Shown here one piece after another: positions 29,735 to 58,514 of a DNA stretch of 64,000 nucleotides. Source of the DNA: a phage. The position numbers were made by a program, and so were the translations under genes. Position 1 is the stretch's first letter. Each line of letters opens with the position of its first letter. Where the stretch lies: NCBI GenBank assembly GCA_025830695.1, contig GCA_025830695.1_4111.1; one strand, 5' to 3'. The notes below the pieces were generated by a model, which was given only the letters and a program-made list of their open reading frames with translations, made no database searches and was not told where the DNA came from.

Positions 29735-29748
29735 CTAAAGGTAATAAG

Positions 29749-31734: not shown

Positions 31735-31740
31735 TTACAA

Positions 31741-31765: not shown

Positions 31766-31776
31766 TAGGTGCATAT

Positions 31777-39497: not shown

Positions 39498-39672
39498 GAC
39501 ATTTGATGAGTGGTTTAATCTACACTATAATATAAATGCAGCAGATATATACTATTTTAAGCTTGAATTGTATATATCATTGCGTAACCCAATTGAGTAC
39601 TATAACAACATTATCAATTGTGATGATTTTGGTACATATTTTAGTATAGCCGTTATGGATATTAAGAGATGA
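39487..39672 (+). CDS. hypothetical protein
   Basis: 61-aa ORF. Confidence 0.4.
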   Translation: MQPKTFDEWFNLHYNINAADIYYFKLELYISLRNPIEYYNNIINCDDFGTYFSIAVMDIKR

Positions 39673-39848
39673 CACATGAAGAATGGATGGCAATGATGAA
39701 AAAACGTTATGACCAGTTTGGAAATGGATTTATTGATGGTCATTTCGATATTTTACGAGACAAATATAAGTTCGAATCATATGTACTAGATGAGAATGGA
39801 AATCGTTGGTTCATCTATGAGCTTGCGGTTAGAGACAAAAAAATATAA
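39669..39848 (+). CDS. MTHEEW-family small protein (member 1)
   Basis: Not in ORF track; ATGA overlap; MTHEEWMAMMKKRYDQFGNGFIDGHFDILRD... Confidence 0.5.
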   Translation: MTHEEWMAMMKKRYDQFGNGFIDGHFDILRDKYKFESYVLDENGNRWFIYELAVRDKKI

Positions 39849-39865: not shown

Positions 39866-39926
39866 CATTGCAATGCTTTCTTTACAGAAGAATAAATGAA
39901 ACACTTAATTGAACTGGATACATAAA
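39866..39926 (+). pseudogene. decayed remnant of the 3' end of a paralog of gene 40229-40444
   Basis: Near-identical DNA to 40386-40444 but with an in-frame stop. Confidence 0.4.
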
Positions 39927-40103
39927 ATGACACATGAAGAATGGATAGAGTCACTAAAATATAAACATGATCATTTTGGATTTGGTATACGCCAAGGCCA
40001 TTATGATGTTTTGAACGATAAAAAAACGTTCGAATCATTGGTTTTGGACGAAGATTCCAACCACTGGTTCATCTACGAGCTTGCTATTAGAGATAAAAAA
40101 TAG
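39927..40103 (+). CDS. MTHEEW-family small protein (member 2)
   Basis: MTHEEWIESLKYKHDHFGFGIRQGHYDVLND... Confidence 0.55.
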   Translation: MTHEEWIESLKYKHDHFGFGIRQGHYDVLNDKKTFESLVLDEDSNHWFIYELAIRDKK

Positions 40104-40108: not shown

Positions 40109-40444
<336 letters not shown>

Positions 40445-40445
40445 A

Positions 40446-40628
40446 ATGACACACGAAGAATGGATGTCCAAACAGCATAAAGAACATGACTGCTTTGGGA
40501 ATGGCATTCGTCAGGTACATTATGATATATTAAGAGATGAAAATCTTTTCAGGTCATATGTTTTGGATACCAGAAAACCCTGGTTTATATGCGAACTGGC
40601 ATTTAGAAAGTCAAATAATCAAAACTAA
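40446..40628 (+). CDS. MTHEEW-family small protein (member 3)
   Basis: MTHEEWMSKQHKEHDCFGNGIRQVHYDILRD... Confidence 0.55.
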   Translation: MTHEEWMSKQHKEHDCFGNGIRQVHYDILRDENLFRSYVLDTRKPWFICELAFRKSNNQN

Positions 40629-40644
40629 ACAAGGAATACAAAAA

Positions 40645-40863
40645 ATGGAAACAACTTTATTTGAAGTTATTCAATCATTAAAACCTGAAGATGAGGTTCA
40701 AGTACTACTACATGGTTATCGTGTAAAAGGTACTGTGGTTTTAGTCAATGATACAACATTGGTTATTACAGAAACAAACCCATATGATAGTAATCAACTT
40801 GCCAATATCCATATCGATATCACTGGAATTATTGGTGTCGGTGTATCTAAAACACTTGCATAA
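40645..40863 (+). CDS. hypothetical protein
   Basis: Trimmed to ATG after AAGGAA. Confidence 0.5.
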   Translation: METTLFEVIQSLKPEDEVQVLLHGYRVKGTVVLVNDTTLVITETNPYDSNQLANIHIDITGIIGVGVSKTLA

Positions 40864-40916
40864 ATCATTAATTCATTATATAATGATTATCACTGGTTCT
40901 AGATGAGGATAATATT

Positions 40917-41189
40917 ATGCATTTTGAAAAATTCAACGTAAATCGTAACACACGCATTGAAGTTCTTTATGAAACTCAAGACACCATTAGTATTCGTACA
41001 AGTAGTGGGGATGTATATCATGACTGTACGATTGGCTGGGAACAGGGAAGGACGCGTAGTGCAGTATTTGATAATTATCGCTTTTATCAAGGAGACACTA
41101 CGATTTGGCCTGAATACGTAGAAGATATTGCGTTTGAAGATGAACATAAAGATGAATTTATCAAATTTAATCCTCAAACTGAATCATAA
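40917..41189 (+). CDS. hypothetical protein
   Basis: 90-aa ORF, RBS GAGGA. Confidence 0.5.
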   Translation: MHFEKFNVNRNTRIEVLYETQDTISIRTSSGDVYHDCTIGWEQGRTRSAVFDNYRFYQGDTTIWPEYVEDIAFEDEHKDEFIKFNPQTES

Positions 41190-41193
41190 ATAA

Positions 41194-41323
<130 letters not shown>

Positions 41324-41326
41324 AAT

Positions 41327-41427
<101 letters not shown>

Positions 41428-41429
41428 CA

Positions 41430-41590
<161 letters not shown>

Positions 41591-41594
<4 letters not shown>

Positions 41595-41751
41595 CACATG
41601 AAGAATGGATGAATGACATTAATTTTAGATATTCGGGTATCGGTAAATGGCTAAAGTATCATTGGGAATTCATTTCAGAGCCACATCTGTATGATAAACT
41701 TATCAACGATCCAGCATATGAAATGTACTTAATTGAACTACTGGTACGATT

Positions 41752-41755
<4 letters not shown>
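41591..41755 (+). CDS. MTHEEW-family small protein (member 5)
   Basis: 54 aa, about 80 percent DNA identity to member 4; ATGA overlap. Confidence 0.5.
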
Positions 41756-41917
<162 letters not shown>

Positions 41918-41925
41918 AAAAAAAG

Positions 41926-42335
<410 letters not shown>

Positions 42336-42339
<4 letters not shown>

Positions 42340-42371
42340 CTAAATAATTCAGTACTGAGGATATTAATATG
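42336..42371 (+). promoter_or_regulatory. degenerate copy of the promoter cassette
   Basis: TTGACTAAATAATTCAGTACTGA then a poor -10. Confidence 0.3.
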
Positions 42372-42396
42372 TTTAAAGATGAACGTCCAGATTTGT

Positions 42397-42444
<48 letters not shown>

Positions 42445-42449
42445 ATCAG

Positions 42450-42782
42450 ACGTATATGGTGTAAGTTACGTCGATGCAATCCAGAACAAGATCTCTGGTA
42501 CTCTAGGAAGTGGTGAATGTTAACCTAGACGGGTTTGATAATTGGACGATAGGCAATTATTACTTGACTAGCAGGTTTAAACTAGAGGTGACTATCCTTC
42601 ACCAAACTGGAAAACCGGATGGACTTTTATTTAAAAGGGTAAGGCGTGGAAATATGTTTACAGAAGTTGCTTTTAGTAGCCTGTACGCCCCACGTCAAGG
42701 TAGCCGAAAGGCAAGTTAAGACGGGTGGTTATAAAGCTGAATTAACAGCGGCGTTTAAAAGCGTCACCATCCATTTTTTTTT
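42450..42782 (+). ncRNA. candidate structured non-coding RNA
   Basis: About 330 nt without a credible ORF, visibly GC-richer than flanks, promoter upstream and T9 run at 3' end. Confidence 0.3.
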
Positions 42783-42798
42783 AATTAAAGTTGGTGAT

Positions 42799-43608
<810 letters not shown>

Positions 43609-43632
43609 ACGAAATTACAATAGGAAATTAAA

Positions 43633-43818
43633 ATGCAACTTTTAATTCTTTCAATATTGTATATTATTATAATGGTTCCGATATCAATACGTTTAATTAC
43701 ACTTGAACGATTTTTATCGAAACATGGAAATAGATCTATGATCTTAGTACCAATCGGGCTTATATTGTTTGGTATTTTTGCATTTATAATGGGAATTAAC
43801 GCTACATTCATTTCATAG
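43633..43818 (+). CDS. small membrane protein
   Basis: 61 aa, two hydrophobic helices. Confidence 0.45.
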   Translation: MQLLILSILYIIIMVPISIRLITLERFLSKHGNRSMILVPIGLILFGIFAFIMGINATFIS

Positions 43819-43827
43819 GAAACAAAT

Positions 43828-44085
<258 letters not shown>

Positions 44086-44093
44086 GAATTTAA

Positions 44094-44495
44094 ATGAAAA
44101 AGAATGACTTGATCAAAATGCTTCAAGAAATTGACGGCAATCCAGAGATTGTTATTTGGAATGGATACGTCGATGATTATATGAACATCGAAAAAGGCTT
44201 GACTAAAATCACTCTAGTCAAAGAAACCGAACAGTTTCTTCAGGGTGCATTAGAGCACGAATGGTGTGAACGTAACAATACATTCGACATTCCAGAAGAC
44301 CAACGAACCAAGATTGCAGAACGTGCTAAAGAACTGCATAAGAAACGTGAATACGATTTCCAGAACCCATATGTCACTGAAGACGAATTCAATCGCTGGT
44401 ACGGTAAAAAGAAATTGATAAAGTATGTCCTTTCACCTAAACTACGTGGTAAGACTTCACTTGGTGTATTCAACGCCGCAGACTTAAACTACTAA
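44094..44495 (+). CDS. hypothetical protein
   Basis: 133-aa ORF. Confidence 0.5.
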   Translation: MKKNDLIKMLQEIDGNPEIVIWNGYVDDYMNIEKGLTKITLVKETEQFLQGALEHEWCERNNTFDIPEDQRTKIAERAKELHKKREYDFQNPYVTEDEFNRWYGKKKLIKYVLSPKLRGKTSLGVFNAADLNY

Positions 44496-44507
44496 GAGAG
44501 TATTTAA

Positions 44508-44981
<474 letters not shown>

Positions 44982-45016
44982 CAGGGGAGGTTGTGATTCC
45001 CGATTCAGTAGCTTAT

Positions 45017-45139
<123 letters not shown>

Positions 45140-45140
45140 T

Positions 45141-45275
<135 letters not shown>

Positions 45276-45277
45276 TA

Positions 45278-45334
<57 letters not shown>

Positions 45335-45419
45335 AGTAAGAGTAAAAATGAAAGTAAGTAAAAAAACTACCAAGCAGCTTGAAGAACTTTGTAGTGCTGC
45401 ACCTATGCCGACTCTTGGC

Positions 45420-45520
<101 letters not shown>

Positions 45521-45532
45521 TATCTTACTTCT

Positions 45533-45622
<90 letters not shown>

Positions 45623-45628
45623 TACACT

Positions 45629-46054
45629 ATGAAATACAACATTGTTAAAATGGTGAACTATATATTAAAAAACAACGCATGGTCACTGCATGATGTACAA
45701 TTAGAAGATATTGGTGAAGTTAGAGTATTTTGCTATGATCCAGATTTGAATCAAACCACAGATTTGAGTAAATGTTTTAATATTTTTCTTGGTTATGAAT
45801 TCAATAATCATTTTTATTCATTTGATGTGTATTTTGAAAAAGTTATATTCAGAAGTTATGAATGTGATAATGAAGATTATGATTATGATGATGAATCAAT
45901 TGAATTGAATGTTAACGATATTGATACTGAAGAAAAATTCTTCCAGTACTGCCTCCTTAACGACACATTAGGATTAACATTTGAGGACATTAAAGCTATA
46001 CTTAAAGTTCAAAAGTTGATTCCAGAAGAGGTTCTAAATCCATTAAATGACTAG
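45629..46054 (+). CDS. EExFFQxS-motif family protein (member 16)
   Basis: TEEKFFQYCLLNDTLGLTFED. Confidence 0.55.
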   Translation: MKYNIVKMVNYILKNNAWSLHDVQLEDIGEVRVFCYDPDLNQTTDLSKCFNIFLGYEFNNHFYSFDVYFEKVIFRSYECDNEDYDYDDESIELNVNDIDTEEKFFQYCLLNDTLGLTFEDIKAILKVQKLIPEEVLNPLND

Positions 46055-46412
46055 TCTAATAGTACGTATAATGCAAGATGTTTGTAATAACCTTTATACA
46101 GGCAATTTTGACGATCCGAACATAAAAATATTATGTTATGATGGTTTTACAATGGTACATCCATCCTATTCAAATAATATCTACGTAGCATATACAGGTG
46201 AAAATCTATTATATCAATTTGATATATATAGTACAATGACAAAGATAATTTTGGATGCCTCTAAACCAGCAATCTTTATTGCTTCTCATGATTACCATTA
46301 CACTGAAGAATCACTATTTCAGTACTCAATGATTAATGACATTGGTGGGTTGACATTGGATGAGGTTAATGCTATACTAGCTGTCTCACGTTTGGTTAAA
46401 ACCCACAATTAG
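46047..46412 (+). CDS. EExFFQxS-motif family protein (member 17)
   Basis: TEESLFQYSMINDIGGLTLDE. Confidence 0.6.
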   Translation: MTSLIVRIMQDVCNNLYTGNFDDPNIKILCYDGFTMVHPSYSNNIYVAYTGENLLYQFDIYSTMTKIILDASKPAIFIASHDYHYTEESLFQYSMINDIGGLTLDEVNAILAVSRLVKTHN

Positions 46413-46421
46413 GAGATTCAT

Positions 46422-46613
46422 ATGTTCTGGAATTTATTATGCTTGTTTGGTCGTACATTGGTTCTTGCTATTATTCATACACCTGGTATTCGTAATTATG
46501 TTTCTTATGAATTTAAGAAAAATTATCACAACAATACTGAAGTTCGTACAACTAAGATGTGCAAAGACTTCAAGGTAGATGTTCCACCATTCAAGAAGTA
46601 CGAGGATGAATAA
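46422..46613 (+). CDS. small membrane-anchored protein
   Basis: 63 aa, RBS AGGAG. Confidence 0.5.
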   Translation: MFWNLLCLFGRTLVLAIIHTPGIRNYVSYEFKKNYHNNTEVRTTKMCKDFKVDVPPFKKYEDE

Positions 46614-46897
46614 TGGAATTCATTGTTGCACCTGATGAACTTAAAACATTCACGTTCAGAGATAATAACAATTATCCTTATACAAATCATTCATTGAATT
46701 CATTACATGTTATTGCAATCATTGCATCTGAATACAGGGATAATCCATGTATTGATTTTAAAACCACTGATGGCGAATATACATGGGTGATCCCAAAAGA
46801 TAAATATAGTTATCAAGGGGCAGTAGAAATTCGTGACTCGATTCTAAAACAAATCGAAGATGGAAATACTCATCCTAAACTAAACACTCAGTACTGA
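46613..46897 (+). CDS. hypothetical protein
   Basis: 94-aa ORF. Confidence 0.5.
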   Translation: MEFIVAPDELKTFTFRDNNNYPYTNHSLNSLHVIAIIASEYRDNPCIDFKTTDGEYTWVIPKDKYSYQGAVEIRDSILKQIEDGNTHPKLNTQY

Positions 46898-46910
46898 AAT
46901 CGTTTAACCC

Positions 46911-46966
46911 GATAGCTTCTAGTCAGTACTGATTCCTCCTTATGTATAGAAGCTATCACTTTTTTA
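46911..46966 (+). terminator. hairpin with large loop plus T-run (terminator-like)
   Basis: GATAGCTTCTA/TAGAAGCTATC stem, 25-nt loop, followed by TTTTTT; flanked by TCAGTACTGA copies. Confidence 0.4.
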
Positions 46967-47085
46967 CGTATAATGATATTACCCTCAAATTCATTATATT
47001 CGTTACCCTCTAACAGTATCTTTTTATTCCTCTTGGATGCTGTAATTTAGAAGTTGACTTTTTAACTTCTACTGTGTTATACTTA

Positions 47086-47114
47086 AGGCTGATTCGATGA
47101 ATCGGCCTTTTTTC
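47086..47114 (+). terminator. intrinsic terminator
   Basis: AGGCTGATTC-GAT-GAATCGGCCT followed by TTTTTTC. Confidence 0.65.
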
Positions 47115-47122
47115 TTATATAG

Positions 47123-47551
47123 GTGAATGCAATGAGTTATTTGTTTACTTTAATTGATAAGTATGTTGACATTGTATACCGTCAAGTTTGTAGTGATACG
47201 TTTGAAACAAAAAACCCAATTAGAGATGGCATTTTTGATGTTGTCGTTGGATCATTTTTGAATGGATACACCGAGACATTATACAACAGTAATAATATTT
47301 TTATTTCAGTTCAATCCAGACATACATCAGACTATGCTGTTAGCATTGATATTTGGGAAAATAATATAGAAATAGATATAACGGAACATACTAACATTCA
47401 TGTTGATGATACATTTAATCAATTAACTGAAGAAATGTACTTGCAGTTGAATTTTGTACATGATCTTACAAATATCAGTTATGATACATTAAGGAAAATA
47501 TGTTTTCTTAGTGGGGCGATCCGTAGTAATATGAGTAAGGATGGGAAGTGA
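47123..47551 (+). CDS. EExFFQxS-motif family protein (member 18, divergent)
   Basis: TEEMYLQLNFVHD. Confidence 0.5.
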   Translation: MNAMSYLFTLIDKYVDIVYRQVCSDTFETKNPIRDGIFDVVVGSFLNGYTETLYNSNNIFISVQSRHTSDYAVSIDIWENNIEIDITEHTNIHVDDTFNQLTEEMYLQLNFVHDLTNISYDTLRKICFLSGAIRSNMSKDGK

Positions 47552-47552
47552 A

Positions 47553-47969
47553 ATGTTAAAAATTCCACCTAAGTCGTTAACACATCTTATTGAATGTGGT
47601 GTAATATTTTCCGAAGGTGATACCTCATCATACACATTGGTCGATGAACCTTATAATTTTTCATACCAATCTTATAAAAATAATTCTAAAATTTCTTGTA
47701 GAGATGCTGAAAACATATTAATAGATGTTTCGTTACATAATGTTCCGAAATTTTACATTGATATCTTTGGTGATTCTTTGACAATTCGAACATATGATTA
47801 TTTTATTAATAACGACCTCTTGAGTCTTCCAATTGAACATGATACTATAGATTCAGAGATGTTCTTTCAACTATCAACAGTTTACGATTTACAGGGTTTA
47901 ACTGTTGAGCAGTTGAATGGAATATTTGAGATTTCACGAAACATACGAAGCAGGAATAAAAATGTCTAA
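47553..47969 (+). CDS. EExFFQxS-motif family protein (member 19)
   Basis: DSEMFFQLSTVYDLQGLTVEQ. Confidence 0.55.
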   Translation: MLKIPPKSLTHLIECGVIFSEGDTSSYTLVDEPYNFSYQSYKNNSKISCRDAENILIDVSLHNVPKFYIDIFGDSLTIRTYDYFINNDLLSLPIEHDTIDSEMFFQLSTVYDLQGLTVEQLNGIFEISRNIRSRNKNV

Positions 47970-48378
47970 TATTTTAAATGAAAAAACAGTTGATGTTGTT
48001 ATTGGTGTTCTTAACACCGCAACTTCATTTCAGAAGAAACACAGTACTGTATACTTCGGTGACGATTGTTGGCTGAACTATACATCTGATAATTCGTTTA
48101 TAATTCGTGTTGAGAAGGGTGATATTGGATTAACGATACATGCTTCCCACACTAAAACTGATAAGAAAATCACTGTTATTGCAAACAAGCCAAGTGTCTC
48201 AGATTTCTGGGATAGAATTGATGATTGCGACCATTTCATGTCAACATTCTATAAAACAGAAGAAGAACATTTCATGGATAGTACGGTCAAAGAATTAGCT
48301 ATTCCATTTAAACTTATGAAAGCAGTAAGAGATTTTATTTTAAAATACAAAAAAATAGGAGTTACTAATGCAATTTAA
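47962..48378 (+). CDS. EExFFQxS-motif family protein (member 20)
   Basis: TEEEHFMDSTVKE; start trimmed to ATG after AGGAA. Confidence 0.5.
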   Translation: MSNILNEKTVDVVIGVLNTATSFQKKHSTVYFGDDCWLNYTSDNSFIIRVEKGDIGLTIHASHTKTDKKITVIANKPSVSDFWDRIDDCDHFMSTFYKTEEEHFMDSTVKELAIPFKLMKAVRDFILKYKKIGVTNAI

Positions 48379-48814
48379 TGGTAAAGTTTCCAAAGTAGGT
48401 TTGGTTTTTGAAAACTGTGAATTTGTTGATATTGATGTAAAGAATGTTTTATGGATGCATATTGCTGATGAGAAGACTCTTTGTAGCCGTTTTTCAAACG
48501 GACTGACAATTAGTACTGTTATCGGTGAGTTCGGTATTGCATTACGCAGCAATACACCATCGGATTTCATGGACAACTCTACACTGTTAGACCGTTTAAA
48601 AATGCGTGACGTTACACATGTTTATCTATATGATACTAACGGTGTTGAACAGCGTTATGTAGTTGAATGGGCTAATTATAACCTTAGTGATCAATATTCA
48701 GTAAACCAGCGTGTTCAACTCACCCCTGGTGGTAATATTGTGTTTGTTAGTTCAACTGGTAAATTAATCAGTGTAGATGATAAAAACATTGACCTATTCA
48801 CCGCATATAACTAA
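48368..48814 (+). CDS. hypothetical protein
   Basis: 148-aa ORF, RBS AGGAG. Confidence 0.55.
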   Translation: MQFNGKVSKVGLVFENCEFVDIDVKNVLWMHIADEKTLCSRFSNGLTISTVIGEFGIALRSNTPSDFMDNSTLLDRLKMRDVTHVYLYDTNGVEQRYVVEWANYNLSDQYSVNQRVQLTPGGNIVFVSSTGKLISVDDKNIDLFTAYN

Positions 48815-48825
48815 TACGAGCTTCC

Positions 48826-49245
48826 ATGAAAACAATCCAAATTCATTTCAAAGACACTTGGACAGAAGTAAGTACTGGTAATATTCAGGATATTTTATAT
48901 AGTACTGAAACTATTCATGTTTATGATGAAGAGACTGCTTCCGAGCAGTTAAAAGTTTTGCATCGTAGTGTTGGTGTGCACACTGAATATGGCATTAAAC
49001 ATACTCGTGAATTACTTAATACTAATCACATTGAAACCCGTAAAGCAAACTTATCAAAAGAAGAAATGTTCGATTTCATCCTGAACCATAAAGTTCATAT
49101 TGAGCCTGATGGGTCTATATGGGAGAACACTGCTGGACAAAAAGTGCTGAAAAAATATCATGTTTCAATTGATAATGTAAAAATGTCAGGGTATGATTTG
49201 GAAGATGCAATTAATGAATATGTATCTAGGCAGAGGGCAAATTGA
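48826..49245 (+). CDS. hypothetical protein
   Basis: 139-aa ORF. Confidence 0.5.
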   Translation: MKTIQIHFKDTWTEVSTGNIQDILYSTETIHVYDEETASEQLKVLHRSVGVHTEYGIKHTRELLNTNHIETRKANLSKEEMFDFILNHKVHIEPDGSIWENTAGQKVLKKYHVSIDNVKMSGYDLEDAINEYVSRQRAN

Positions 49246-49616
49246 TGAGCTTGATAACATTTACAATTATTTGTTGCATTACTATTGTACTTTGTCGCCT
49301 GATTCATGTATACTCATATCATAAAGCGTTGCGAATCGAACAAGAGATTTACAACGAAAACCGAGAACCAGAACCAGTCAAGAAGCCACCATCACCTTAT
49401 GGGTTGAAACGTGAGATGCATTCTCAAAGTAAAAAGTGGGGTTATGCAATTACTAAAAATGGCTACATCTATACTGCAAGTAATGGTTATTTTCAAATTC
49501 ACCACGAATTAGAAGTGGCAGTTCAAATTTTGTGGGAGATGGAGGACATTGGTGGTTATGAGCGTACTAAGTTTGAATTCATATCAAATGATCCAGGAAC
49601 TTCACGAGAAACATGA
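49242..49616 (+). CDS. membrane-anchored protein
   Basis: N-terminal hydrophobic helix; ATGA overlap. Confidence 0.5.
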   Translation: MMSLITFTIICCITIVLCRLIHVYSYHKALRIEQEIYNENREPEPVKKPPSPYGLKREMHSQSKKWGYAITKNGYIYTASNGYFQIHHELEVAVQILWEMEDIGGYERTKFEFISNDPGTSRET

Positions 49617-49761
49617 TATAATTGTTGATGTGGAGAAGAAGGAAGTCGTTATGAAAAAGCAAGCATATAGAATTTTAGAAGACTTCCATCTAAAAGCATT
49701 TATAATGAAGTTCTGTACAGATGAACATCTTACCGGACGAGTAATACGTAAGGAGTTGTAA
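49558..49761 (+). CDS. hypothetical small protein (start uncertain)
   Basis: ORF-track ORF overlapping upstream gene; alternative start ATG 49651 after GGAGAAGAAGGAAG. Confidence 0.3.
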   Translation: MSVLSLNSYQMIQELHEKHDIIVDVEKKEVVMKKQAYRILEDFHLKAFIMKFCTDEHLTGRVIRKEL

Positions 49762-50103
49762 ATGAACTTAAGTTCAACAATTCAGTACTTGAGCAGTAAC
49801 TTCGAGAAAATTATTTCTCGCGGTGGGATGATTGTACACCCAGAAACAGAGGAAATGTACATCATTGGATTTGATAAAAATTCTTATGATCAAGTACTTG
49901 TAATTTCCAAGTTAGAAAGTTATAATGAAGTTGTTCAGTTTTGCTGTACCGAATTTGGTATCTATATTAAAGACGCTGAAACTAATACAATTTCGCATTA
50001 TTTTTACCACACACTGATGGGTACTAAAGACTTCGGCTTGAAGTTCGATGATTTAGTACAATGTCACTATATGTTTAAAACCTTCCCAGCTAGTGGGCAT
50101 TAA
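49762..50103 (+). CDS. hypothetical protein
   Basis: 113-aa ORF, RBS AAGGAG. Confidence 0.55.
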   Translation: MNLSSTIQYLSSNFEKIISRGGMIVHPETEEMYIIGFDKNSYDQVLVISKLESYNEVVQFCCTEFGIYIKDAETNTISHYFYHTLMGTKDFGLKFDDLVQCHYMFKTFPASGH

Positions 50104-50116
50104 GGAGTATATCAAT

Positions 50117-50905
50117 ATGAGCAACATTTTCTTCAAAACTATTTCTTTCAAAAAAGCATCTTACTCCTACGCCTACGTTGATGGTAAAGTGCTTAATATT
50201 GTACTGGATGGTGTTGACGTACCAGTTGAATTTAAAACACATGAAGAAGCAGTTGAAGGTGCTAAAGAATTGAATTCAATTCTTAATGGTGAAGTAAGTC
50301 AAAAACAACATGTAAAATCTGATTTAGATGTACTTTTGGAAAAAATCAAAACTGGTGAAGTATTAGAAATTTTAGACAACTGTAATGAAAAACTTCGTAA
50401 TGTAGTTAATAATGTTCGTGACCAGATTCAAGAAAAAGCACTAGAGCAAGCATTCAAACATGTATCCAAGAATGCTGAATCTCGTATTGACGGTATGGTT
50501 AAAAATCTTGATGATGTACTATCTCATCTCTTTACTAAAGAATACGAACAAGAAGTTGAAGAAGAACCAGTAAAAGAAACTAAAAAAGAAAAACGTAGCT
50601 TTGGCTCAGGTGATGATGTGTTTGGTTTTACGAATGTCCGAACAAGTGCAGATGAACCAAAAGAAATTAGTGAGATGCTCATTGGTGACATGACAACTAA
50701 GCAGCTTCGTAATGAAATTGACAAGTTTGTAACTAGTTGTATCAAATCAGAACGTGCACAAAGTATGTTTAAAAGCATTAGTGAGAACTTTGGTCCAGAA
50801 GCAACTGAGCAGGCACTAACTGCATTTAAAGAATTGATTTATAATGTAGCCATTAGCAATCCAGATAAAACACTTGAAGAAGTTCTACGTGACAATTTCA
50901 AATAA
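50117..50905 (+). CDS. hypothetical protein
   Basis: Trimmed to ATG after AAGGAG. Confidence 0.55.
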   Translation: MSNIFFKTISFKKASYSYAYVDGKVLNIVLDGVDVPVEFKTHEEAVEGAKELNSILNGEVSQKQHVKSDLDVLLEKIKTGEVLEILDNCNEKLRNVVNNVRDQIQEKALEQAFKHVSKNAESRIDGMVKNLDDVLSHLFTKEYEQEVEEEPVKETKKEKRSFGSGDDVFGFTNVRTSADEPKEISEMLIGDMTTKQLRNEIDKFVTSCIKSERAQSMFKSISENFGPEATEQALTAFKELIYNVAISNPDKTLEEVLRDNFK

Positions 50906-50918
50906 TTAGATAAAATTA

Positions 50919-50947
50919 AAGCCACTACAATGTAGTGGCTTTTTTTA
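50919..50947. terminator. bidirectional intrinsic terminator between convergent genes
   Basis: AGCCACTACA/TGTAGTGGCT palindromic hairpin followed by TTTTTTT on + and an A-run upstream (U-run on minus). Confidence 0.65.
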
Positions 50948-52102
50948 TTATGCGTTGTAACCAACTATTACGACTGAGCAGTCAAGCGGTTCTACTACTT
51001 TAAGAATTACATTATCATCTTCATCCACTTGTATTTCACTATGAACTACATGATTGTCTGAAGAATATAATTGAACTTGTGGTAGTGCTTTACCATGTTC
51101 AGTTACTGGAACTGAGATAGAGTACATAGAGTCTTCACCGAGAACCCACTCACTTAAAGTATATTCTTTATGGAAAGGAGTAGTATGCAGTGTTTTTCCG
51201 ATTATACTCAAAGAAACAGGTAAATTGTCAGTTTGATACACAGTAATATTACCTTCTGCGTCTACAGAAAGATCTACACCAACTTGATATAAGTCACCAC
51301 TGTATGCTTGAAGTGCTAAGTACTGTCCACGATCATGAACATCAAATGGAACAACCGCAGAAAATACACCTTCCGAAACAGGTTCAAATTGGGATAGAAG
51401 AACTGATGTAACAAAATCAATATCCTCACCACTTTCAAGAACATCAAATTCCACCACTTTAGTGTTATAATATGGAGAAGTGAGTGTAGCAGTACCTTTT
51501 CCTGATTGTGTGATAACATCAACTGGAATTGTAAATGCATCATTAACAAATTGGGTAGTAAAGTATTCTGTTCCGTCTGGTAATACGATTGTTATTACCA
51601 TACCGTTAGTATCAATTTCTGAACCAGTATTGAATAATTTACCACTAATTGAGTCATTACCAACAAATACTGGTGAAATGAGAATATTATCTATATCACG
51701 ATCTATAATACCACATTCAGGTGTATACATATGATACAAGGTTTGTGAACTACCTAAAATTGTTCTATGTAGCATGAATTTATATACAAATCCAGTATCA
51801 GTTTCTTGTGGCTCTTCAGAATATCCACGAACAAAGAAACAATTTTTATTAATTTCACTTAATAGTTGGTCATTAGTTTTATTGTAATTTAATAGATAAC
51901 CTTTATTATCTTTAGTTGTTATTTGTACTTTACGATATATTATATTAGTTCTTGGATCAACTAAATCATATAATCTATGGCTTCTTTGGCGATAGATTCT
52001 AATATTTTTTAGTCTAGTTCCATCATTGAGGATTGCACCATCAACAACATAACCACATTCACCAAACTTATAGCGTCCAGCCGCAGCAATTGACCTTGAC
52101 AT
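50948..52102 (-). CDS. hypothetical protein; only sizeable minus-strand gene in the window
   Basis: 384-aa ORF on minus strand; strong RBS GGAGGG; own promoter; no motif recognised. Confidence 0.6.
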   Translation of the reverse strand: MSRSIAAAGRYKFGECGYVVDGAILNDGTRLKNIRIYRQRSHRLYDLVDPRTNIIYRKVQITTKDNKGYLLNYNKTNDQLLSEINKNCFFVRGYSEEPQETDTGFVYKFMLHRTILGSSQTLYHMYTPECGIIDRDIDNILISPVFVGNDSISGKLFNTGSEIDTNGMVITIVLPDGTEYFTTQFVNDAFTIPVDVITQSGKGTATLTSPYYNTKVVEFDVLESGEDIDFVTSVLLSQFEPVSEGVFSAVVPFDVHDRGQYLALQAYSGDLYQVGVDLSVDAEGNITVYQTDNLPVSLSIIGKTLHTTPFHKEYTLSEWVLGEDSMYSISVPVTEHGKALPQVQLYSSDNHVVHSEIQVDEDDNVILKVVEPLDCSVVIVGYNA

Positions 52103-52124
52103 TTATCCCTCCATTGGTATAATT

Positions 52125-52153
52125 ATTATAACGTATTTATTATGCATATCCAA
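52125..52153 (-). promoter_or_regulatory. sigma70-type promoter for the minus-strand gene
   Basis: On minus strand TTGGAT-N17-TATAAT. Confidence 0.45.
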
Positions 52154-52163
52154 AAAATGAGCT

Positions 52164-52192
52164 TGACTGGTGTATGATTTGGTGTTATCATG
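52164..52192 (+). promoter_or_regulatory. sigma70-type promoter, divergent from the minus-strand promoter
   Basis: TTGACT-N17-TATCAT. Confidence 0.5.
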
Positions 52193-52218
52193 TAGTGAAT
52201 GAATAATGAGGTGTTTTT

Positions 52219-52803
52219 ATGAATGTTATTGATAATAGATTAGTACTGAAAAATGGAAAAATGACTGTTAAGTTATATAAAGATGAAGCTGATTCTTTTA
52301 TGGCAAAAGCGATTGAAAAATCAGAACGATATAAACTTTTGGCTCCAGCAAGTAAATCGCCATATGGTTTTAATCATGCACATAGTCATTTTGTTGGTAT
52401 GGTGTGTGAGCACGCATCTTTAGTACTTTTTAATGAAATTGAAAACAATACTGGTATTAAACTTAATATCGATCCAGCATTCCAAAATGAAGCACGTGAC
52501 GGTGAATGTGATATTAAGGTAAACAACCTTCGTATTGAAGTAAAAGGTATCAAGTATAAATCATGGACTGACTTTGGACCATGTGTTAGTACTCGACAGT
52601 TAAAAAATATCCAGAAAAAAGCTGACGTAATACTATGGGTATTGTATAATGAGAAAAAACAAGAGTTCACGTTTGAGGGATTCAACTATGTAAAAGATAT
52701 TAGTTCTATCCCAGTTATCCTCACTGGTGTACCAGGGCGACCAATGATTGAAAATCACCCAGTACTCGGTATTATGAAACCACTACAGGAGTTACCATTG
52801 TGA
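52219..52803 (+). CDS. hypothetical protein, possible PD-(D/E)xK-like nuclease
   Basis: Motif GECDIKVNNLRIEVKG resembles D...(D/E)xK. Confidence 0.5.
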   Translation: MNVIDNRLVLKNGKMTVKLYKDEADSFMAKAIEKSERYKLLAPASKSPYGFNHAHSHFVGMVCEHASLVLFNEIENNTGIKLNIDPAFQNEARDGECDIKVNNLRIEVKGIKYKSWTDFGPCVSTRQLKNIQKKADVILWVLYNEKKQEFTFEGFNYVKDISSIPVILTGVPGRPMIENHPVLGIMKPLQELPL

Positions 52804-53027
52804 TTACTGCAACTGTATATCAAGATATCAATGAAGAATTTCATTCTAAAATTGCGTTCTTATCATTTCCTGTACTCCCAGCAGTTGGGTCAACGTTGAA
52901 TCTTACCATTTGTGGTTTTGAGAAATATTATAAAGTACTAGATATTGAGTACTGTGCTGATGTATATTCATGTAATAGTGAAATTGCAATTCCAGTATCA
53001 ATCGATATTATTGTAAAAGAGGTTTGA
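52800..53027 (+). CDS. hypothetical protein
   Basis: 75-aa ORF. Confidence 0.45.
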   Translation: MITATVYQDINEEFHSKIAFLSFPVLPAVGSTLNLTICGFEKYYKVLDIEYCADVYSCNSEIAIPVSIDIIVKEV

Positions 53028-53485
53028 TTATGTTTAAGAATTTTATGGTTATCGTAGCAGTACTGTTTGGTACATCATGTTTCATTTCCCCAGTACACGC
53101 AGAAGAACAACGTCAAACTATTAAAACTATTGGGACTGGTAAAACTCCCCCTAAACGTACTGCTGAAGAATACATGCCTGAAATGCGTGAACGTTATCGT
53201 CAGACATACAGGGAAAAACATGCTAATGATAAACCCATCAAGAAGCATAAATGGGAAGTTGTTAAATCTCCTTCATTTTGTGCTGGATATGCTAAAGTAA
53301 AGATTGAGCAGCACAAAAACCAGTACTATAAAGATATGTATTCCTTCTATGACTCCAGAATTTCTGACACAGATATGATGGCAGGGAAGGTTGATAAAGA
53401 AGAATTTCTACAAGGCTATGATATGATGGACGATGACAAAATCATGGAATGCGTTGAAGTGTATGAAAAATACAGAGGCTTCTGA
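53024..53485 (+). CDS. secreted/periplasmic protein
   Basis: N-terminal signal-peptide-like VIVAVLFGTSCFISPVHA. Confidence 0.5.
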   Translation: MIMFKNFMVIVAVLFGTSCFISPVHAEEQRQTIKTIGTGKTPPKRTAEEYMPEMRERYRQTYREKHANDKPIKKHKWEVVKSPSFCAGYAKVKIEQHKNQYYKDMYSFYDSRISDTDMMAGKVDKEEFLQGYDMMDDDKIMECVEVYEKYRGF

Positions 53486-53961
53486 TGTTAACAATAGTGT
53501 TGTTGGTAAGTCCATTTGTGTATTTTGTGCTGTATAATATTTTTAGTAATGCTAATCATTTTAAATATGCACAAACAATTGCAAAGCATGAAGGTTTTTG
53601 GAATTTTTTCCCAGCATTACTATGCTCATATCTATACCATGAACGCTATTTCATTTTTCCTGAATATAAAAATTATGGTTATGATTCTAAAGTAAATGGT
53701 ATAATTGAGTACTGTATAAGAAATTATCTTAATAATAATGATAACGTCCAAGTAAGAATAGGAAATGGTAATATATCAAGAATAGTTTTCATACCTGATA
53801 TACAAGATCCAATATACTTATATCCATATGATTATAGTATTAGTGTAGGTTGTTCGATACATGGTAGTAAATCTATGTACGATTACTTTATCTTACCACC
53901 AACACAAATTAGATTAATAGAAAAATATTTGAGGGAAAAGTTTGACAACAAAGATTCTTAG
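53485..53961 (+). CDS. hypothetical protein
   Basis: 158-aa ORF, hydrophobic N-terminus. Confidence 0.5.
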   Translation: MLTIVLLVSPFVYFVLYNIFSNANHFKYAQTIAKHEGFWNFFPALLCSYLYHERYFIFPEYKNYGYDSKVNGIIEYCIRNYLNNNDNVQVRIGNGNISRIVFIPDIQDPIYLYPYDYSISVGCSIHGSKSMYDYFILPPTQIRLIEKYLREKFDNKDS

Positions 53962-54002
53962 TATTATAATTAACACACCAAGTAACCCAAGGGGGGTGGA
54001 AA

Positions 54003-54461
54003 ATGGATGTATTAGCTACAAATTTCAAACGTAATGTTGAAGAGCGTGAAGGTTATTTTAGTATTAGTGAAGTTGTCGATGACAATTTTAAACAATACAT
54101 TTTTAATAGTGCAATTAAATTAAAATGCACAAAAGATTCACCTGATCGTAGCTTTACTAAATGGATTGCGTATTGGGAAGATTCACCAGTTGCAATTGAA
54201 ATGACTGTGATTACAACAGTACTTGAAACTGGTTACATCAAAGCCATTATAGTTGATAAGAAAGTCCGTACTCTTGATGAAATTAATCCATATCCAGCCC
54301 GAAATTCTAAAGTTTTTGGTGTGTTGGTTGATGGTAAATTTATGATAGAAAAAGATGCAAAGGAATATGTAATTAATAAACTTCAAACTACATCAGAAAA
54401 AAAGGAAGTAGTGGACCAAAACTCTGTTGATGCAATCAAAAAAGCATGGGGACTAAAGTAA
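54003..54461 (+). CDS. hypothetical protein
   Basis: 152-aa ORF, RBS GGGGGTGG. Confidence 0.5.
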   Translation: MDVLATNFKRNVEEREGYFSISEVVDDNFKQYIFNSAIKLKCTKDSPDRSFTKWIAYWEDSPVAIEMTVITTVLETGYIKAIIVDKKVRTLDEINPYPARNSKVFGVLVDGKFMIEKDAKEYVINKLQTTSEKKEVVDQNSVDAIKKAWGLK

Positions 54462-54462
54462 T

Positions 54463-54885
54463 ATGTTCACACTAAGTAATGCAAAATATCTTTTTCTTAT
54501 TAGTATTATTGGTTGGGTTATGGCTCCAGTGCTAAATGCACTGGGGTTTTCCGATGAACATAAACTTTTAAATGTTTCAGGTTTAATTCAGGGTATTTCA
54601 TGGTATACATTAATTACATTTTCAGTGTGCATCAATACATTTGCCCGTGATTATCGACGTTTGTTATATCTGAAAGTATTTGGAACTACACGATATAGTT
54701 TTGTTTACACTTTCATTTTAGTACCGTGTATGTTATATGCATTTGTATTTGATTACTATACATATCTATGGGTATGTGGAACTATGTTTGTTATGTTGGA
54801 ATACATCAGAACTGTTCAAAACTCATATGCCGATGAGTTTCATGATCTAGAAGTTAAACGAAAATTAACGGAGCTAAACAAATGA
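54463..54885 (+). CDS. integral membrane protein
   Basis: Several hydrophobic helices. Confidence 0.5.
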   Translation: MFTLSNAKYLFLISIIGWVMAPVLNALGFSDEHKLLNVSGLIQGISWYTLITFSVCINTFARDYRRLLYLKVFGTTRYSFVYTFILVPCMLYAFVFDYYTYLWVCGTMFVMLEYIRTVQNSYADEFHDLEVKRKLTELNK

Positions 54886-55307
54886 GAGGCTATAATAAGA
54901 TTTGTATTTTTGTATTTTTAGTTTGTGCATTCAATTCGTTTGGTTACTACTGTACAGAAAATAATATTTCATATGGTTTAAATCCTTTGTGGTTTACAAT
55001 TTCCAATGTAGCACAAATTGGTATTGCTCTTATGTCTGCACTTATGTTCTGTCCAATTGTCACTATGGATACTGATCATGAAAGGCTTGGATTTCTCCGT
55101 GATACTGGAGACGAACCTTACAGTAGATTGATTGTGTTGTATCCATTTATTGTTATTTTAGGTACTAACATCCAACTTGGGTCATTATCTAATAGTGTTA
55201 CATCAGCAGCTATTGCTATATTTGCATTCACATTTTTTATGGTACACAAATCAGTACTTAATTGGTATATCACAAAAATGGCAGAAGAAGGTACTAAAAA
55301 TACTTGA
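54882..55307 (+). CDS. integral membrane protein
   Basis: Several hydrophobic helices. Confidence 0.5.
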   Translation: MRGYNKICIFVFLVCAFNSFGYYCTENNISYGLNPLWFTISNVAQIGIALMSALMFCPIVTMDTDHERLGFLRDTGDEPYSRLIVLYPFIVILGTNIQLGSLSNSVTSAAIAIFAFTFFMVHKSVLNWYITKMAEEGTKNT

Positions 55308-55332
55308 CATAATTTAGTATGTTATATATAAT
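55304..55332 (+). promoter_or_regulatory. sigma70-type promoter
   Basis: TTGACA-N17-TATAAT. Confidence 0.55.
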
Positions 55333-55366
55333 TATTTTGTTAAAAACAAATTAGAGTAAGGAACTT

Positions 55367-55618
55367 ATGAACATCGATAAGGTCAAAGAACTTAGTGCTG
55401 CACTAATTAAGAATGAAGAAGTTTGTGAAGAACTTCGCAGTACTATCAAAGTTGAGTACGCACGACTCCAAGGTATGCTTCAAGAATCAGAATGGGTAGT
55501 AACTAAATCTATCGAAGCAATCTATAAGGATATCGAATCCCTTTTCAACAAGAAAAGTAAGATTGAATCTGATTCATATAACAAACGTAAAGAGTTATCT
55601 ACTGCACTTGGTATCTAA
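55367..55618 (+). CDS. hypothetical protein
   Basis: 83-aa ORF, RBS AAGGAA. Confidence 0.5.
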   Translation: MNIDKVKELSAALIKNEEVCEELRSTIKVEYARLQGMLQESEWVVTKSIEAIYKDIESLFNKKSKIESDSYNKRKELSTALGI

Positions 55619-55624
55619 AAGTAT

Positions 55625-55653
55625 TTGACATAACAAATAATATGGAGTACAAT
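55625..55653 (+). promoter_or_regulatory. sigma70-type promoter
   Basis: TTGACA-N17-TACAAT. Confidence 0.55.
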
Positions 55654-55692
55654 GTGCTCCTAATTTAATTATCAGCTAGAAAGGAAAACATT

Positions 55693-55953
55693 ATGAAATC
55701 TATTCTCGTTGCAGTTAACTTGGTTGCTTCCCCATCTTTCAACTTCAAACAAGTTGTTGCTGATAATCTGAAGAAGATCTGTCCAAACGCTGAATTAACT
55801 TTCTGTGTGTTTGATTCAGAAAAAGTAACTAAAGTTGATCTAAACTATCTTTTGAACGAAGTAAAAAGCGTTTCTGGTGAAAGTAACTTAAAAGTTCTTC
55901 ATGATATTGCTGATGATTATGATGATACACTTGTAATTTCGGAGAAATTCTAA
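55693..55953 (+). CDS. hypothetical protein
   Basis: 86-aa ORF, RBS AAAGGAAA. Confidence 0.5.
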   Translation: MKSILVAVNLVASPSFNFKQVVADNLKKICPNAELTFCVFDSEKVTKVDLNYLLNEVKSVSGESNLKVLHDIADDYDDTLVISEKF

Positions 55954-55958
55954 ATAAA

Positions 55959-56378
55959 ATGTTTAGATTTCTTCAGTACTTAATCATTAAGTTCTTTGGT
56001 TATCATACGATTGAAGGAAAAGCTACACTTGCACATAAAATCTTTGTAGCATTATGTACGGGTGATTATGACGTATTGAATAAGTACTGTAAATCGCAAG
56101 CATGTATTGATATAATGGCACTTCGTATCTATGAGTGCCAGTTCAATAGATATAATTTTTACCAGTACAGATTTGATAAAGAAGAATTTGATAGCATCAA
56201 AATGCTAAAGAATTTATGTAACAATAAAAAGAATATGCATATATCAGAATTTGTTGCTTTGTATTTTTATTTAAAAAGTTCATTGTATATGAACACGATG
56301 CAAAGATTCGATACTAGAATTAATGTATTCACCGATAAAGAATTTTATATATACGATAAATTCTTAGATAAGGTTTAA
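55959..56378 (+). CDS. hypothetical protein
   Basis: 139-aa ORF. Confidence 0.5.
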   Translation: MFRFLQYLIIKFFGYHTIEGKATLAHKIFVALCTGDYDVLNKYCKSQACIDIMALRIYECQFNRYNFYQYRFDKEEFDSIKMLKNLCNNKKNMHISEFVALYFYLKSSLYMNTMQRFDTRINVFTDKEFYIYDKFLDKV

Positions 56379-56379
56379 T

Positions 56380-56877
56380 ATGACAACTGTTTATATTGAT
56401 AAACGATTAAATTTATTGATTACCGATTCTAGAGTTACGTCAACTATACCACGAAACTTATTTGGTTTTTTCCCACTAAGACCAAAATATCAATATGGAG
56501 TTGTTAATCAAAAAACTTTATATGTACATGACCGTTTATTCAGTGCTAGTGGGGTAGTAAGTGAAATTGATAAAGTACTGGATTGGTTAATTAATAAAGT
56601 ACCAGTTATACCTGACAGAAAGTTAAGTTGCCATTGTGTGCTTCTTTCTAAAGATTATGTTATTCATATGATTTTAACTAAAGGAAAGTTTATTAAAAAA
56701 CTTGAATATCTACATGAAGACTACACTTTCTTTATGGGAAGTGGTGGAGAATACATGCTAGATGCTGCTATTCATGAAGAACATACAACTTTATATGATA
56801 AAGTGTTTAGTACTTTCATGGATGTGCACAACCATGATTGCTTCACAGATGATAATATTAATGTATATCGATTTTGA
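56380..56877 (+). CDS. hypothetical protein
   Basis: 165-aa ORF. Confidence 0.5.
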   Translation: MTTVYIDKRLNLLITDSRVTSTIPRNLFGFFPLRPKYQYGVVNQKTLYVHDRLFSASGVVSEIDKVLDWLINKVPVIPDRKLSCHCVLLSKDYVIHMILTKGKFIKKLEYLHEDYTFFMGSGGEYMLDAAIHEEHTTLYDKVFSTFMDVHNHDCFTDDNINVYRF

Positions 56878-56898
56878 TTTCGTCATTAGGAGATGTAA

Positions 56899-57864: not shown

Positions 57865-57872
57865 AGAACAAG

Positions 57873-57897
57873 GGTTGGCTTATGCCAACCTTTTTTT
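57873..57897 (+). terminator. intrinsic terminator
   Basis: GGTTGGC-TTAT-GCCAACC followed by TTTTTTT. Confidence 0.75.
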
Positions 57898-57918
57898 ATG
57901 GGATGAAGTAAAAGTTTG

Positions 57919-57927
57919 TGATATAAT
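57919..57927 (+). promoter_or_regulatory. extended -10 promoter element (TGaTATAAT), weak -35
   Basis: Same TGTGATATAAT element as other promoters; lies in front of ORF-free segment. Confidence 0.4.
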
Positions 57928-57934
57928 TATCTTG

Positions 57935-58400
57935 TACAATTCTGTTGGCATGATATTCATGTACCTGATCCACTCGAAAACGTAGAGGGCAGTTGAGCAG
58001 TCCGACAGTGCGAACAGCAAAAGAAACCCGTTAGATGTGGGCATAGTTTGAACCCCTCACGGCAATGCGGCTGTATAAAGAACCACGTTAGGATAGCTGG
58101 TGGTTCCTTGATAGACATATAAGGATAACACCTTACGAATTATCTAAGGGAGAGTTATCGAATTTTGTACAGGAAAGTTGCGTCCAAAATTTGAGTACTC
58201 ACATTAAGTATTTGATTGCATAGATACTTAATGAAGATACACTATGTTTAAAAGTGTAGACCGTCATATGAAACTGAAGTAGAGAGAAACAGGATGACCC
58301 GCTTTCGCACTCGTTATGAGTAATCTTCAATGCAATAGCTCTGATACCATCAGCGTCAAATTTCCCTCCTTGTGGGGGGAAGAAAAATCCCTTCCTCAAA
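57935..58400 (+). ncRNA. candidate structured non-coding RNA
   Basis: About 470 nt with no + strand ORF, visibly GC-richer than surrounding coding DNA. Confidence 0.3.
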
Positions 58401-58421
58401 TCCCGTCAATATTAAAAGTCC

Positions 58422-58450
58422 TTGACAGTTATTAATCATTCGCGTAGAAT
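58422..58450 (+). promoter_or_regulatory. sigma70-type promoter
   Basis: TTGACA-N17-TAGAAT. Confidence 0.5.
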
Positions 58451-58514
58451 ACGTAGTATTAGAAGCGAACAGACATCTCGAAGAGATGGATGATTAACCA
58501 TTAAGGAATATCCA

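Follow-up and report, generated by a model that had tools for sequence, protein, structure and literature searches.

A family of small paralogous genes on both sides of the tRNA block in an Asteriusvirus jumbo phage

Described expansions and early regions

In phage T4 the transfer RNA (tRNA) genes are interspersed with small open reading frames (ORFs) and the homing endonuclease segB, and we know of no comparable multigene family around them. Lineage-specific gene expansions are found elsewhere, for example in the ankyrin/PRANC families of poxviruses. Here we describe a family of small genes in a 64,000-nucleotide stretch of phage DNA (NCBI GenBank assembly GCA_025830695.1, contig GCA_025830695.1_4111.1; this whole stretch is called the window below), and in particular five ORFs between positions 45629 and 48378, just past a block of tRNA genes. 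As in T4, the tRNA cluster is interleaved with small ORFs, and relatives of the phage carry a homing-type endonuclease. The family also resembles the expansions in poxviruses and in Bacillus phage G, in that dozens of diverged tandem paralogs with a variable and a conserved part lie in accessory regions, but its fold and motif are distinct. In phage G, the expansion is a zinc-ribbon family of roughly 35 copies (PMC7824862).

A closer parallel is a region of phage CBB in which RpoD-type promoters, short hypothetical ORFs and tRNAs occur together, and which was proposed as an early host-takeover region (PMC5259590). This region (CBB ORFs 390-546) and the tRNA region of GAP32 share with the window RpoD-type promoters together with tRNA genes and short hypothetical ORFs that lie on one strand, and they occupy the same flank of a conserved virion structural gene. 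The difference is that the regional label came from promoter prediction, and the family with the TEExFFQxST motif was not singled out there. For RaK2, "nearly 10%" of the gene products were described as paralogues (PMC3622015), and this remark is the only published hint that we found. The literature on RaK2, CBB, phAPEC6, UE-S1, Sharanji and fEgEco12, together with a review of jumbo phages, holds no description of the family as such, and a family of 40-60 copies with a signature motif appears to be undescribed. Among the closest known systems are also the acidic mitochondrial matrix proteins MAM33/p32/gC1qBP (PDB 3qv0, 7te3, 3jv1), and no sequence match to their Pfam family (PF02330) was found for any of 40 family members at an expectation value (E) of 1 or below.

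The genes themselves are already in the databases. The 4-kb stretch around the five genes is 99.5% identical to Escherichia phage SHEFM2K and matches 45 records, all of them E. coli or Salmonella jumbo phages of the PBECO4/121Q/G17 type. Judging from these matches, the source is an E. coli jumbo phage of that type, in the genus Asteriusvirus; the DNA of the window (G+C ~33%, nearly all genes on the + strand) is already public and its gene layout is typical of the group. Throughout the matching Asteriusvirus records the five genes are labelled 'hypothetical protein'. Their orthologues (G17_00172/171/167/166/165 and phAPEC6 gp088c/087c/084c/083c, with G17_00172 and gp088c corresponding to the first gene) are these very genes in unchanged order, 93-99% identical in DNA, and they share their labels of unknown function with the PHROG groups 17453, 35192 and 24027; nothing material differs. 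At the locus we compared G17, TH47, Turkey5, ECO103 4-12-1 (below, ECO103) and phAPEC6, and farther away GAP32, CBB and RaK2. ECO103 is an unannotated relative, for which the whole 352 kb genome was assembled and searched with the family profile.

Five genes of one diversified family

An earlier reading of the window from its sequence alone had counted 20 members of a paralogous family, with members 16-20 at 45629-46412 and 47123-48378. The five ORFs do exist there, on the + strand, and they belong to one family. An all-against-all BLASTP comparison of the window ORFs joins those at 45629, 46047 and 47541 (genes are named here by their start positions) to the upstream copies 27653 and 28065, and an iterative profile made from window ORFs only reaches 18 members, picking up 47123 and then 47917 last. 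Since iterative profiles can drift, a leave-one-out test was run, in which the BLASTP-detectable relatives of each query (E<1e-3) were removed from a pool of 197 family sequences, the profile was rebuilt and the query was scored. All five genes were recovered at 32-38 bits (E 2.1e-10 for 45629, 9.9e-11 for 46047, 3.7e-11 for 47132, 2.5e-10 for 47553 and 1.6e-9 for 47962), while six neighbouring ORFs from outside the family gave E values from 0.49 to >10. The number of validated members in the window is 18 rather than 20, including ten copies that span 26008-33567. One further candidate, ORF 49762-50103, looks similar by eye, but it scored E 0.88 in the leave-one-out test and was never recovered by a clean profile; family counts were therefore taken with the clean profile, from which this ORF is excluded.

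The two sub-clusters stand as first described except for three of the starts. Corrected starts follow the annotation of G17 and phAPEC6, the ribosome-binding sites and the onset of PHROG matches. The earlier start at 47123 is an in-frame GTG extension of the gene at 47132, the start at 47541 moves to 47553, and the last gene is placed at 47962 instead of 47917, a start supported by its match to PHROG 24027, which begins at residue 16 of the long ORF. The orthologue of 47553 is annotated in G17 and left unannotated in phAPEC6.

All five genes are under purifying selection, yet they evolve faster than their neighbours. Compared with TH47, where the orthologues are intact at 45-83% protein identity (only 45% for 47132), the ratio of nonsynonymous to synonymous substitution rates (dN/dS) is 0.42 for 45629, 0.18 for 46047, 0.21 for 47132, 0.35 for 47553 and 0.37 for 47962. 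Neighbouring genes from outside the family have values of 0.05-0.25 in the same comparison.

The proteins of the family are ~110-190 amino acids (aa) long, mostly soluble and mostly acidic. What they have in common is a C-terminal signature, T-E-E-x-[FY]-F-Q-x-S-[TL]-[VI]-x-D, at around residue 100. Across the 197 sequences, the counts are 125 for T100, 174 for E101, 175 for E102, 193 for F105, 176 for Q106, 174 for S108 and 136 for D112. The signature can be seen in all five proteins, in degenerate form in 47132 (TEEMYLQLNFVHD) and 47962 (TEEEHFMDSTVKE). It lies in the C-terminal third, and the N-terminal two-thirds can barely be aligned among members. Fold models were made for two of the five proteins. 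For 45629, AlphaFold2 with a 40-sequence alignment gave a model (mean predicted local distance difference test, pLDDT, 85; predicted template modelling score, pTM, 0.80) with a helix at the N-terminus, seven strands and two further helices (101-110 and 118-128), and an independent AlphaFold2 model of 47553 (pLDDT 76, pTM 0.66) has the same architecture. The family fold is thus confidently predicted to run from a helix at the N-terminus through a seven-strand antiparallel sheet, which is highly variable, to a pair of helices at the C-terminus, the first of which bears the signature.

Database searches returned little beyond other uncharacterised proteins. There was no Pfam match for any of 40 members at E<=1, no match to PDB sequences at E<=10, none to the PADLOC anti-phage defence models at E<=0.1, and the NCBIfam search came back empty. 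Against PHROGs, the family matches only groups of unknown function and is split over several unconnected ones (including 17453, 35192 and 24027).

The features of the locus are collected in Table 1. The first gene begins 16 nt past tRNA-Thr with no terminator in between, and we infer that a single transcript covers the tRNA and family genes 45629 and 46047. Genes 45629 and 46047 overlap by 8 nt, and 46047 is the nearest paralog of 45629, at 31% identity; Turkey5 has no orthologue of 46047. The hairpin that divides the two sub-clusters is annotated independently as a terminator in the G17 record (ARNold, -11.6). In the second sub-cluster (47132, 47553 and 47962) the starts are tightly coupled. 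Further unrelated ORFs follow downstream, and the run ends at a bidirectional terminator at 50918-50942.

Table 1. Features of the window and, in the last row, of two relatives
Feature	Position	Strand	Remarks
Family members, upstream group	starts 26008, 27202, 27653, 28065, 28471, 28839, 29294, 31750, 32289, 33124		validated by leave-one-out and clean profile
Family members, others	starts 38548, 41986, 45629, 46047, 47132, 47553, 47962, 62484		validated by leave-one-out and clean profile
MTHEEWM-family ORFs	39669-39848, 39909-40103, 40428-40628, 41430-41594, 41591-41755, 41752-41916		
tRNA genes (ARAGORN)	starts Gly 40131, Ser 41233, Ser 43202, Met 43446, Asn 43529, Thr 45539	+	
Seventh tRNA	41327-41405	+	missed by ARAGORN; Rfam 32.6 bits (threshold reached); tRNA-Arg(tct) in G17
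Family member within tRNA block	41986-42339	+	117 aa; leave-one-out E 1.7e-9; sigma-70-like promoter upstream at 41927-41954
Sigma-70-type promoter	45219-45246	+	TTGACA, 16-nt spacer, TATAAT; 12/12 matches; ahead of tRNA-Thr and of family genes 45629 and 46047
tRNA-Thr (anticodon tgt)	45539-45612	+	ARAGORN; Rfam 67 bits
Family member 45629	45629-46054	+	141 aa; isoelectric point (pI) 4.2; PHROG 17453; motif TEEKFFQYCLLND, residues 100-112
Family member 46047	46047-46412	+	121 aa; pI 4.7; PHROG 17453; leave-one-out E 9.9e-11
Non-member ORF	46422-46613	+	63 aa; in transcription unit of first sub-cluster
Non-member ORF	46613-46897	+	94 aa; PHROG 30132; leave-one-out control, E 0.49; in transcription unit of first sub-cluster
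Intrinsic-terminator-like hairpin	47085-47109	+	11 bp, then T run; divides the two sub-clusters
Family member 47132	47132-47551	+	139 aa; pI 4.6; PHROG 35192; ATG start; AGGTGA ribosome-binding site 5 nt upstream
Family member 47553	47553-47969	+	138 aa; pI 4.7; start 1 nt past preceding stop codon
Family member 47962	47962-48378	+	138 aa; pI 6.5; most divergent of the five; motif TEEEHFMDSTVKE; PHROG 24027
Gene	50093-50905	+	one of two counterparts of phAPEC6 virion-associated gp078c/gp077
Gene	50948-52102	-	other gp078c/gp077 counterpart; convergent with 50093-50905, hairpin 50918-50942 between them
Intron-bearing tRNA-Met loci	TH47 9004-9317; Turkey5 6227-6540 (record positions)		Rfam

Copy number, synteny and the tRNA block

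The family is confined to RaK2-like enterobacterial jumbo phages. An indexed protein search gave matches only from ~350 kb contigs of E. coli samples. An exhaustive search of 1.84 billion representative proteins, with an alignment that included the non-member ORF 49762-50103, gave 129 clusters at E<=1e-3, nearly all of 60-200 aa, and every named member is a 'hypothetical protein'. Longer homologues were inspected for fusions and only P0159 (423 aa, with M23 peptidase, LysM and FG-GAP) had domains; it matches in five short stretches and was rejected as a false positive. Foldseek searches against viral models found uncharacterised proteins of RaK2, GAP32, CBB and Yersinia phage fHe-Yen9-03, and in GAP32 five or six profile-matching ORFs are scattered among the tRNA genes.

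In ECO103, the profile of the 18 window members finds 42 copies, and 62 after convergence; an earlier estimate of 51 had been made with a profile that included ORF 49762-50103. In the converged set, 19 copies lie at 9-50 kb, which is the region of the window, three at 199-213 kb and 38 at 260-300 kb. This second array of 21-38 copies, often back to back and also delimited as 267-295 kb, is ~230 kb from the tRNA block in record coordinates, and all seven ECO103 tRNAs lie at 31-35 kb. By these counts about one gene in ten of ECO103 belongs to the family. Most copies are in the second array, a long way from the tRNAs, and hence the family is not bound to them. One run in the second array (281546-283870) has a sub-motif of its own, PW(D/G)SEEYYFQ(Q/N)ST.

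In the window, the family does bracket the tRNA cluster: members flank the tRNAs at 40131-45612 on both sides, and one (41986) is inside the block. The sequence-only reading took this as the mark of a recombination-prone accessory region. On this explanation tRNAs and family members would come, go and change place as one, with the repeated family members acting as substrates of recombination or as cassette partners of the tRNAs. The gene content around the block does vary from relative to relative. Past tRNA-Thr, Turkey5 has one plus five or six members where the window has two plus three, and the five or six that stand in place of the window's three are only 28-34% identical. The tRNA block is a mosaic even among near-identical phages, and GAP32 also mixes tRNAs with family members. 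The tRNA sets differ as well, with an extra Leu and a second Thr in Turkey5 and no Gly in TH47.

A mobile element in the region is found at tRNA-Met. In TH47 and Turkey5 a group I intron of 230 nt interrupts the anticodon loop of tRNA-Met(CAT) (Rfam 100.5 and 95.1 bits) and is followed by an HNH endonuclease ORF. ARAGORN calls the split tRNA gene Arg(acg); a boundary shift of 3 nt gives Met(CAT), with a U before the 5' splice site and a G as the last intron base. In the window, tRNA-Met (43446-43524) is intron-less, and the 154-nt spacer upstream of it is common to the window and TH47. Here, then, there is a polymorphism with defined ends together with an endonuclease and a ribozyme. At the five family genes there is nothing of the kind, and no flanking repeats, endonuclease or ribozyme were found.

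Several other observations weigh against recombination between family members. The best paralog pair, 45629 and 46047, is 31% identical at the amino acid level and the longest DNA word common to any two members is 15 nt, and for this reason the paralogs cannot drive recombination; they are, on this measure, ancient and too diverged to recombine with each other. The only echo at the DNA level is the 77 nt that encode the motif, 70% identical between 45926 and 46302. In alignment with ECO103, the window falls into long blocks at 98-99% identity and breaks only in the tRNA block (40885-44943), while the five-gene stretch is unbroken within one colinear block (44943-58693, 98.3% identity). No repeats flank the clusters, and the majority of copies are distant from any tRNA. 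None of the relatives examined departs from a colinear gene order, and the order of tRNA-Thr followed by the 45629 orthologue is kept in G17, TH47 and Turkey5. The tRNA and family contents vary independently of each other, contrary to the expectation that they move together. What stands of the earlier reading is that the contents vary among relatives (as the Turkey5 copy number shows) and that family genes are interleaved among tRNAs, and what falls is recombination between paralogs as the cause; as a whole we consider this explanation rather unlikely. On the sequence comparison, change comes from the mobile elements of the tRNA block and from slow birth and death of copies, and the tRNA block is embedded in one of two large early-type gene arrays, uncoupled from the family. 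The adjacency of tRNAs and family genes would then be an early-gene neighbourhood kept by descent and not a functional or mobile unit of the two.

A few further features of the block and its surroundings were seen in passing. The ORFs 44094-44495 and 44508-44945 are missing in TH47, and ECO103 has ~200 nt in their place. The tRNA-Ser at 43202-43291 is tRNA-Ser(gct) in the window, TH47 and Turkey5, and a different tRNA-Ser(act) in G17 and ECO103. A second, unrelated paralog family of six ORFs (54-66 aa, all starting with MTHEEWM once trimmed) is interspersed among the tRNA genes; its ECO103 copies are confined to the tRNA block, TH47 and Turkey5 have the family too, the GAP32 locus lacks it, and it has no match in Pfam, NCBIfam or PADLOC. 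The 384-aa protein of the convergent gene pair in Table 1 is 30-40% identical across CBB, GAP32, 7t3 and Erwinia, Serratia, Yersinia and Xanthomonas phages, which makes it a handy synteny anchor beside the tRNA regions of RaK2-like phages.

It is also worth noting that a palindrome, CAGTACTG, occurs at 27 sites in the window where 0.66 are expected (for example at 41941, 42350, 42420, 44968, 45089, 46889, 46924 and 60261), and that the 10-mer TCAGTACTGA occurs nine times where 0.05 are expected. In the 352 kb of ECO103, no other palindromic 8-mer comes near CAGTACTG in number: it has 204 copies, and the median for palindromes at the same G+C is 1. Eleven copies lie within the spacers of sigma-70-type promoters, as in TTGACTaaatagttCAGTACTGtATAAT, and paired sites are found on both sides of the transcription unit of the first sub-cluster. 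The palindrome could be an operator or another signal at the DNA level; no mention of it was found in the literature.

Possible roles of the proteins

The promoters of the window give some idea of when the genes are used. On the + strand there are 29 promoter matches of at least 11/12 and on the - strand 2, with ~2.3 expected per strand, and 11 of the + strand sites are perfect TTGACA/TATAAT pairs. The whole window is thus likely to be territory of the host polymerase ('early'). Genome-wide the matches number 97 versus 11, and it is in zones rich in promoters that the family arrays are found (Spearman 0.55, p 0.018). In PA5oct, which depends on host RNA polymerase, the promoters read TTGAC/TATAATA (PMC7318152). 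From the promoters and by analogy with such phages, we infer that the family genes are transcribed early by host RNA polymerase. As for the place of action, the virion proteome of phAPEC6 comprises 62 proteins (PMC7247149, Table 1), and gp083c, gp084c, gp087c and gp088c are not among them, whereas the products of the adjacent gp077 and gp078c are.

Taken together, the five ORFs are read here as real Asteriusvirus genes of a lineage-specific family that encodes early, intracellular, diversified binding proteins, and we give this reading slightly the better of an even chance. Transcribed early from host-type promoters by host RNA polymerase, the genes would yield proteins that act within the infected cell. 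That these are diversified binders for host takeover or counter-defence, with a common role for the conserved helix, is a tentative proposal from sequence patterns and fold models, possible rather than probable. On this proposal the variable sheet would give target specificity, and the conserved helix would serve a common function, for example oligomerisation or docking to a shared partner.

Several points weigh against this. The promoter-like site before the second sub-cluster (47054-47083) is weak, with 10/12 matches, and it abuts the terminator hairpin. Early timing is taken from the promoter consensus and from analogy, and the early region of the distant PA5oct, which was defined by RNA-seq, has no family member even at E<=1. 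The orthologues bear no sign of positive selection (pooled dN/dS, split at the motif, 0.36 for the N-terminal and 0.23 for the C-terminal part), which disfavours a fast arms race at the depth of these orthologues. The pI is 4.2-4.7 in four of the five proteins and 6.5 in 47962, with a median of 5.3 for + strand ORFs of the window; acidity is thus only moderately above the background of the phage, and some members are basic, with a pI of up to 9.4. The binder idea, in which we have low confidence, is drawn only from size, charge, the pattern of a variable surface with a conserved helix, and the genomic setting.

A more specific form of the proposal is that the family is a modular arsenal, in which each sheet captures a different host protein, from defence or housekeeping, and the TEExFFQxS helix docks all of them to one partner. 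Candidates for this partner would include a protease, a ring resembling a chaperone and a machine of the phage. In this complete form we think the idea an unlikely one.

Tandem arrays of small diverged paralogs on a common scaffold, with products that are intracellular and outside the virion, also bring to mind the 'polyimmunity' arrays of bacterial toxin systems, and each copy could then be an immunity or exclusion factor against a different toxin or competing phage. There is, however, no similarity to Pfam immunity families, no toxin-like genes were seen adjacent among the window ORFs, and no chromosomal bacterial homologues turned up, the named matches being ~350 kb phage contigs; such a role is improbable. 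A role related to tRNA, either in protecting or handling the phage tRNAs or in countering host anticodon nucleases, would fit the adjacency to tRNA genes in both Asteriusvirus and GAP32 and the short distance between tRNA-Thr and the first gene. It would have to accommodate the acidity of most members, which is unfavourable for RNA binding, and 40-60 copies for 7 tRNAs, with over half of the copies distant from them. Searches of Pfam and NCBIfam found no RNA-binding or nuclease-related domain, and we regard this role as very improbable.

A place for the proteins in the virion, as components of the particle or inside its head, might be suspected from their neighbours at 50093-50905 and 50948-52102, whose counterparts are virion-associated in phAPEC6, but the four family proteins of phAPEC6 are outside its virion proteome and the GAP32 members are outside the proteins annotated as virion structural, and there is hardly any probability left for it. 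Finally, the notion of chance ORFs or decaying, non-functional duplicates, which has on its side that there is no functional annotation anywhere and that one orthologue is unannotated in phAPEC6, deserves almost no credence in view of the dN/dS values and intact orthologues, the motif conserved over 197 sequences, the confident structure predictions, and the ribosome-binding sites and coupled starts.

With the reading as early, intracellular binding proteins thus preferred, the five genes on their own amount to a correct and ordinary annotation of an already public phage, of modest interest and valuable mainly as a pointer; the interest of the whole family is higher. The family appears to be new and undescribed, although its kind is a familiar one, that of accessory, probably early genes that have multiplied within one lineage of jumbo phages, and across a group of jumbo phages that are therapeutic candidates this one uncharacterised family accounts for ~8-11% of the genes. 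With its sharp motif and a confidently predicted fold that has no clear counterpart among solved structures, it is a testable target among the 'dark' early genes of jumbo phages, and the conserved E-E/F/Q/S/D residues are ready-made sites for mutagenesis. If the modular arsenal were true, a single, previously undescribed system of host manipulation would take up about one in ten genes of RaK2-like jumbo phages, and the family would be a phage counterpart of the poxvirus families that combine variable repeats with a conserved adaptor.

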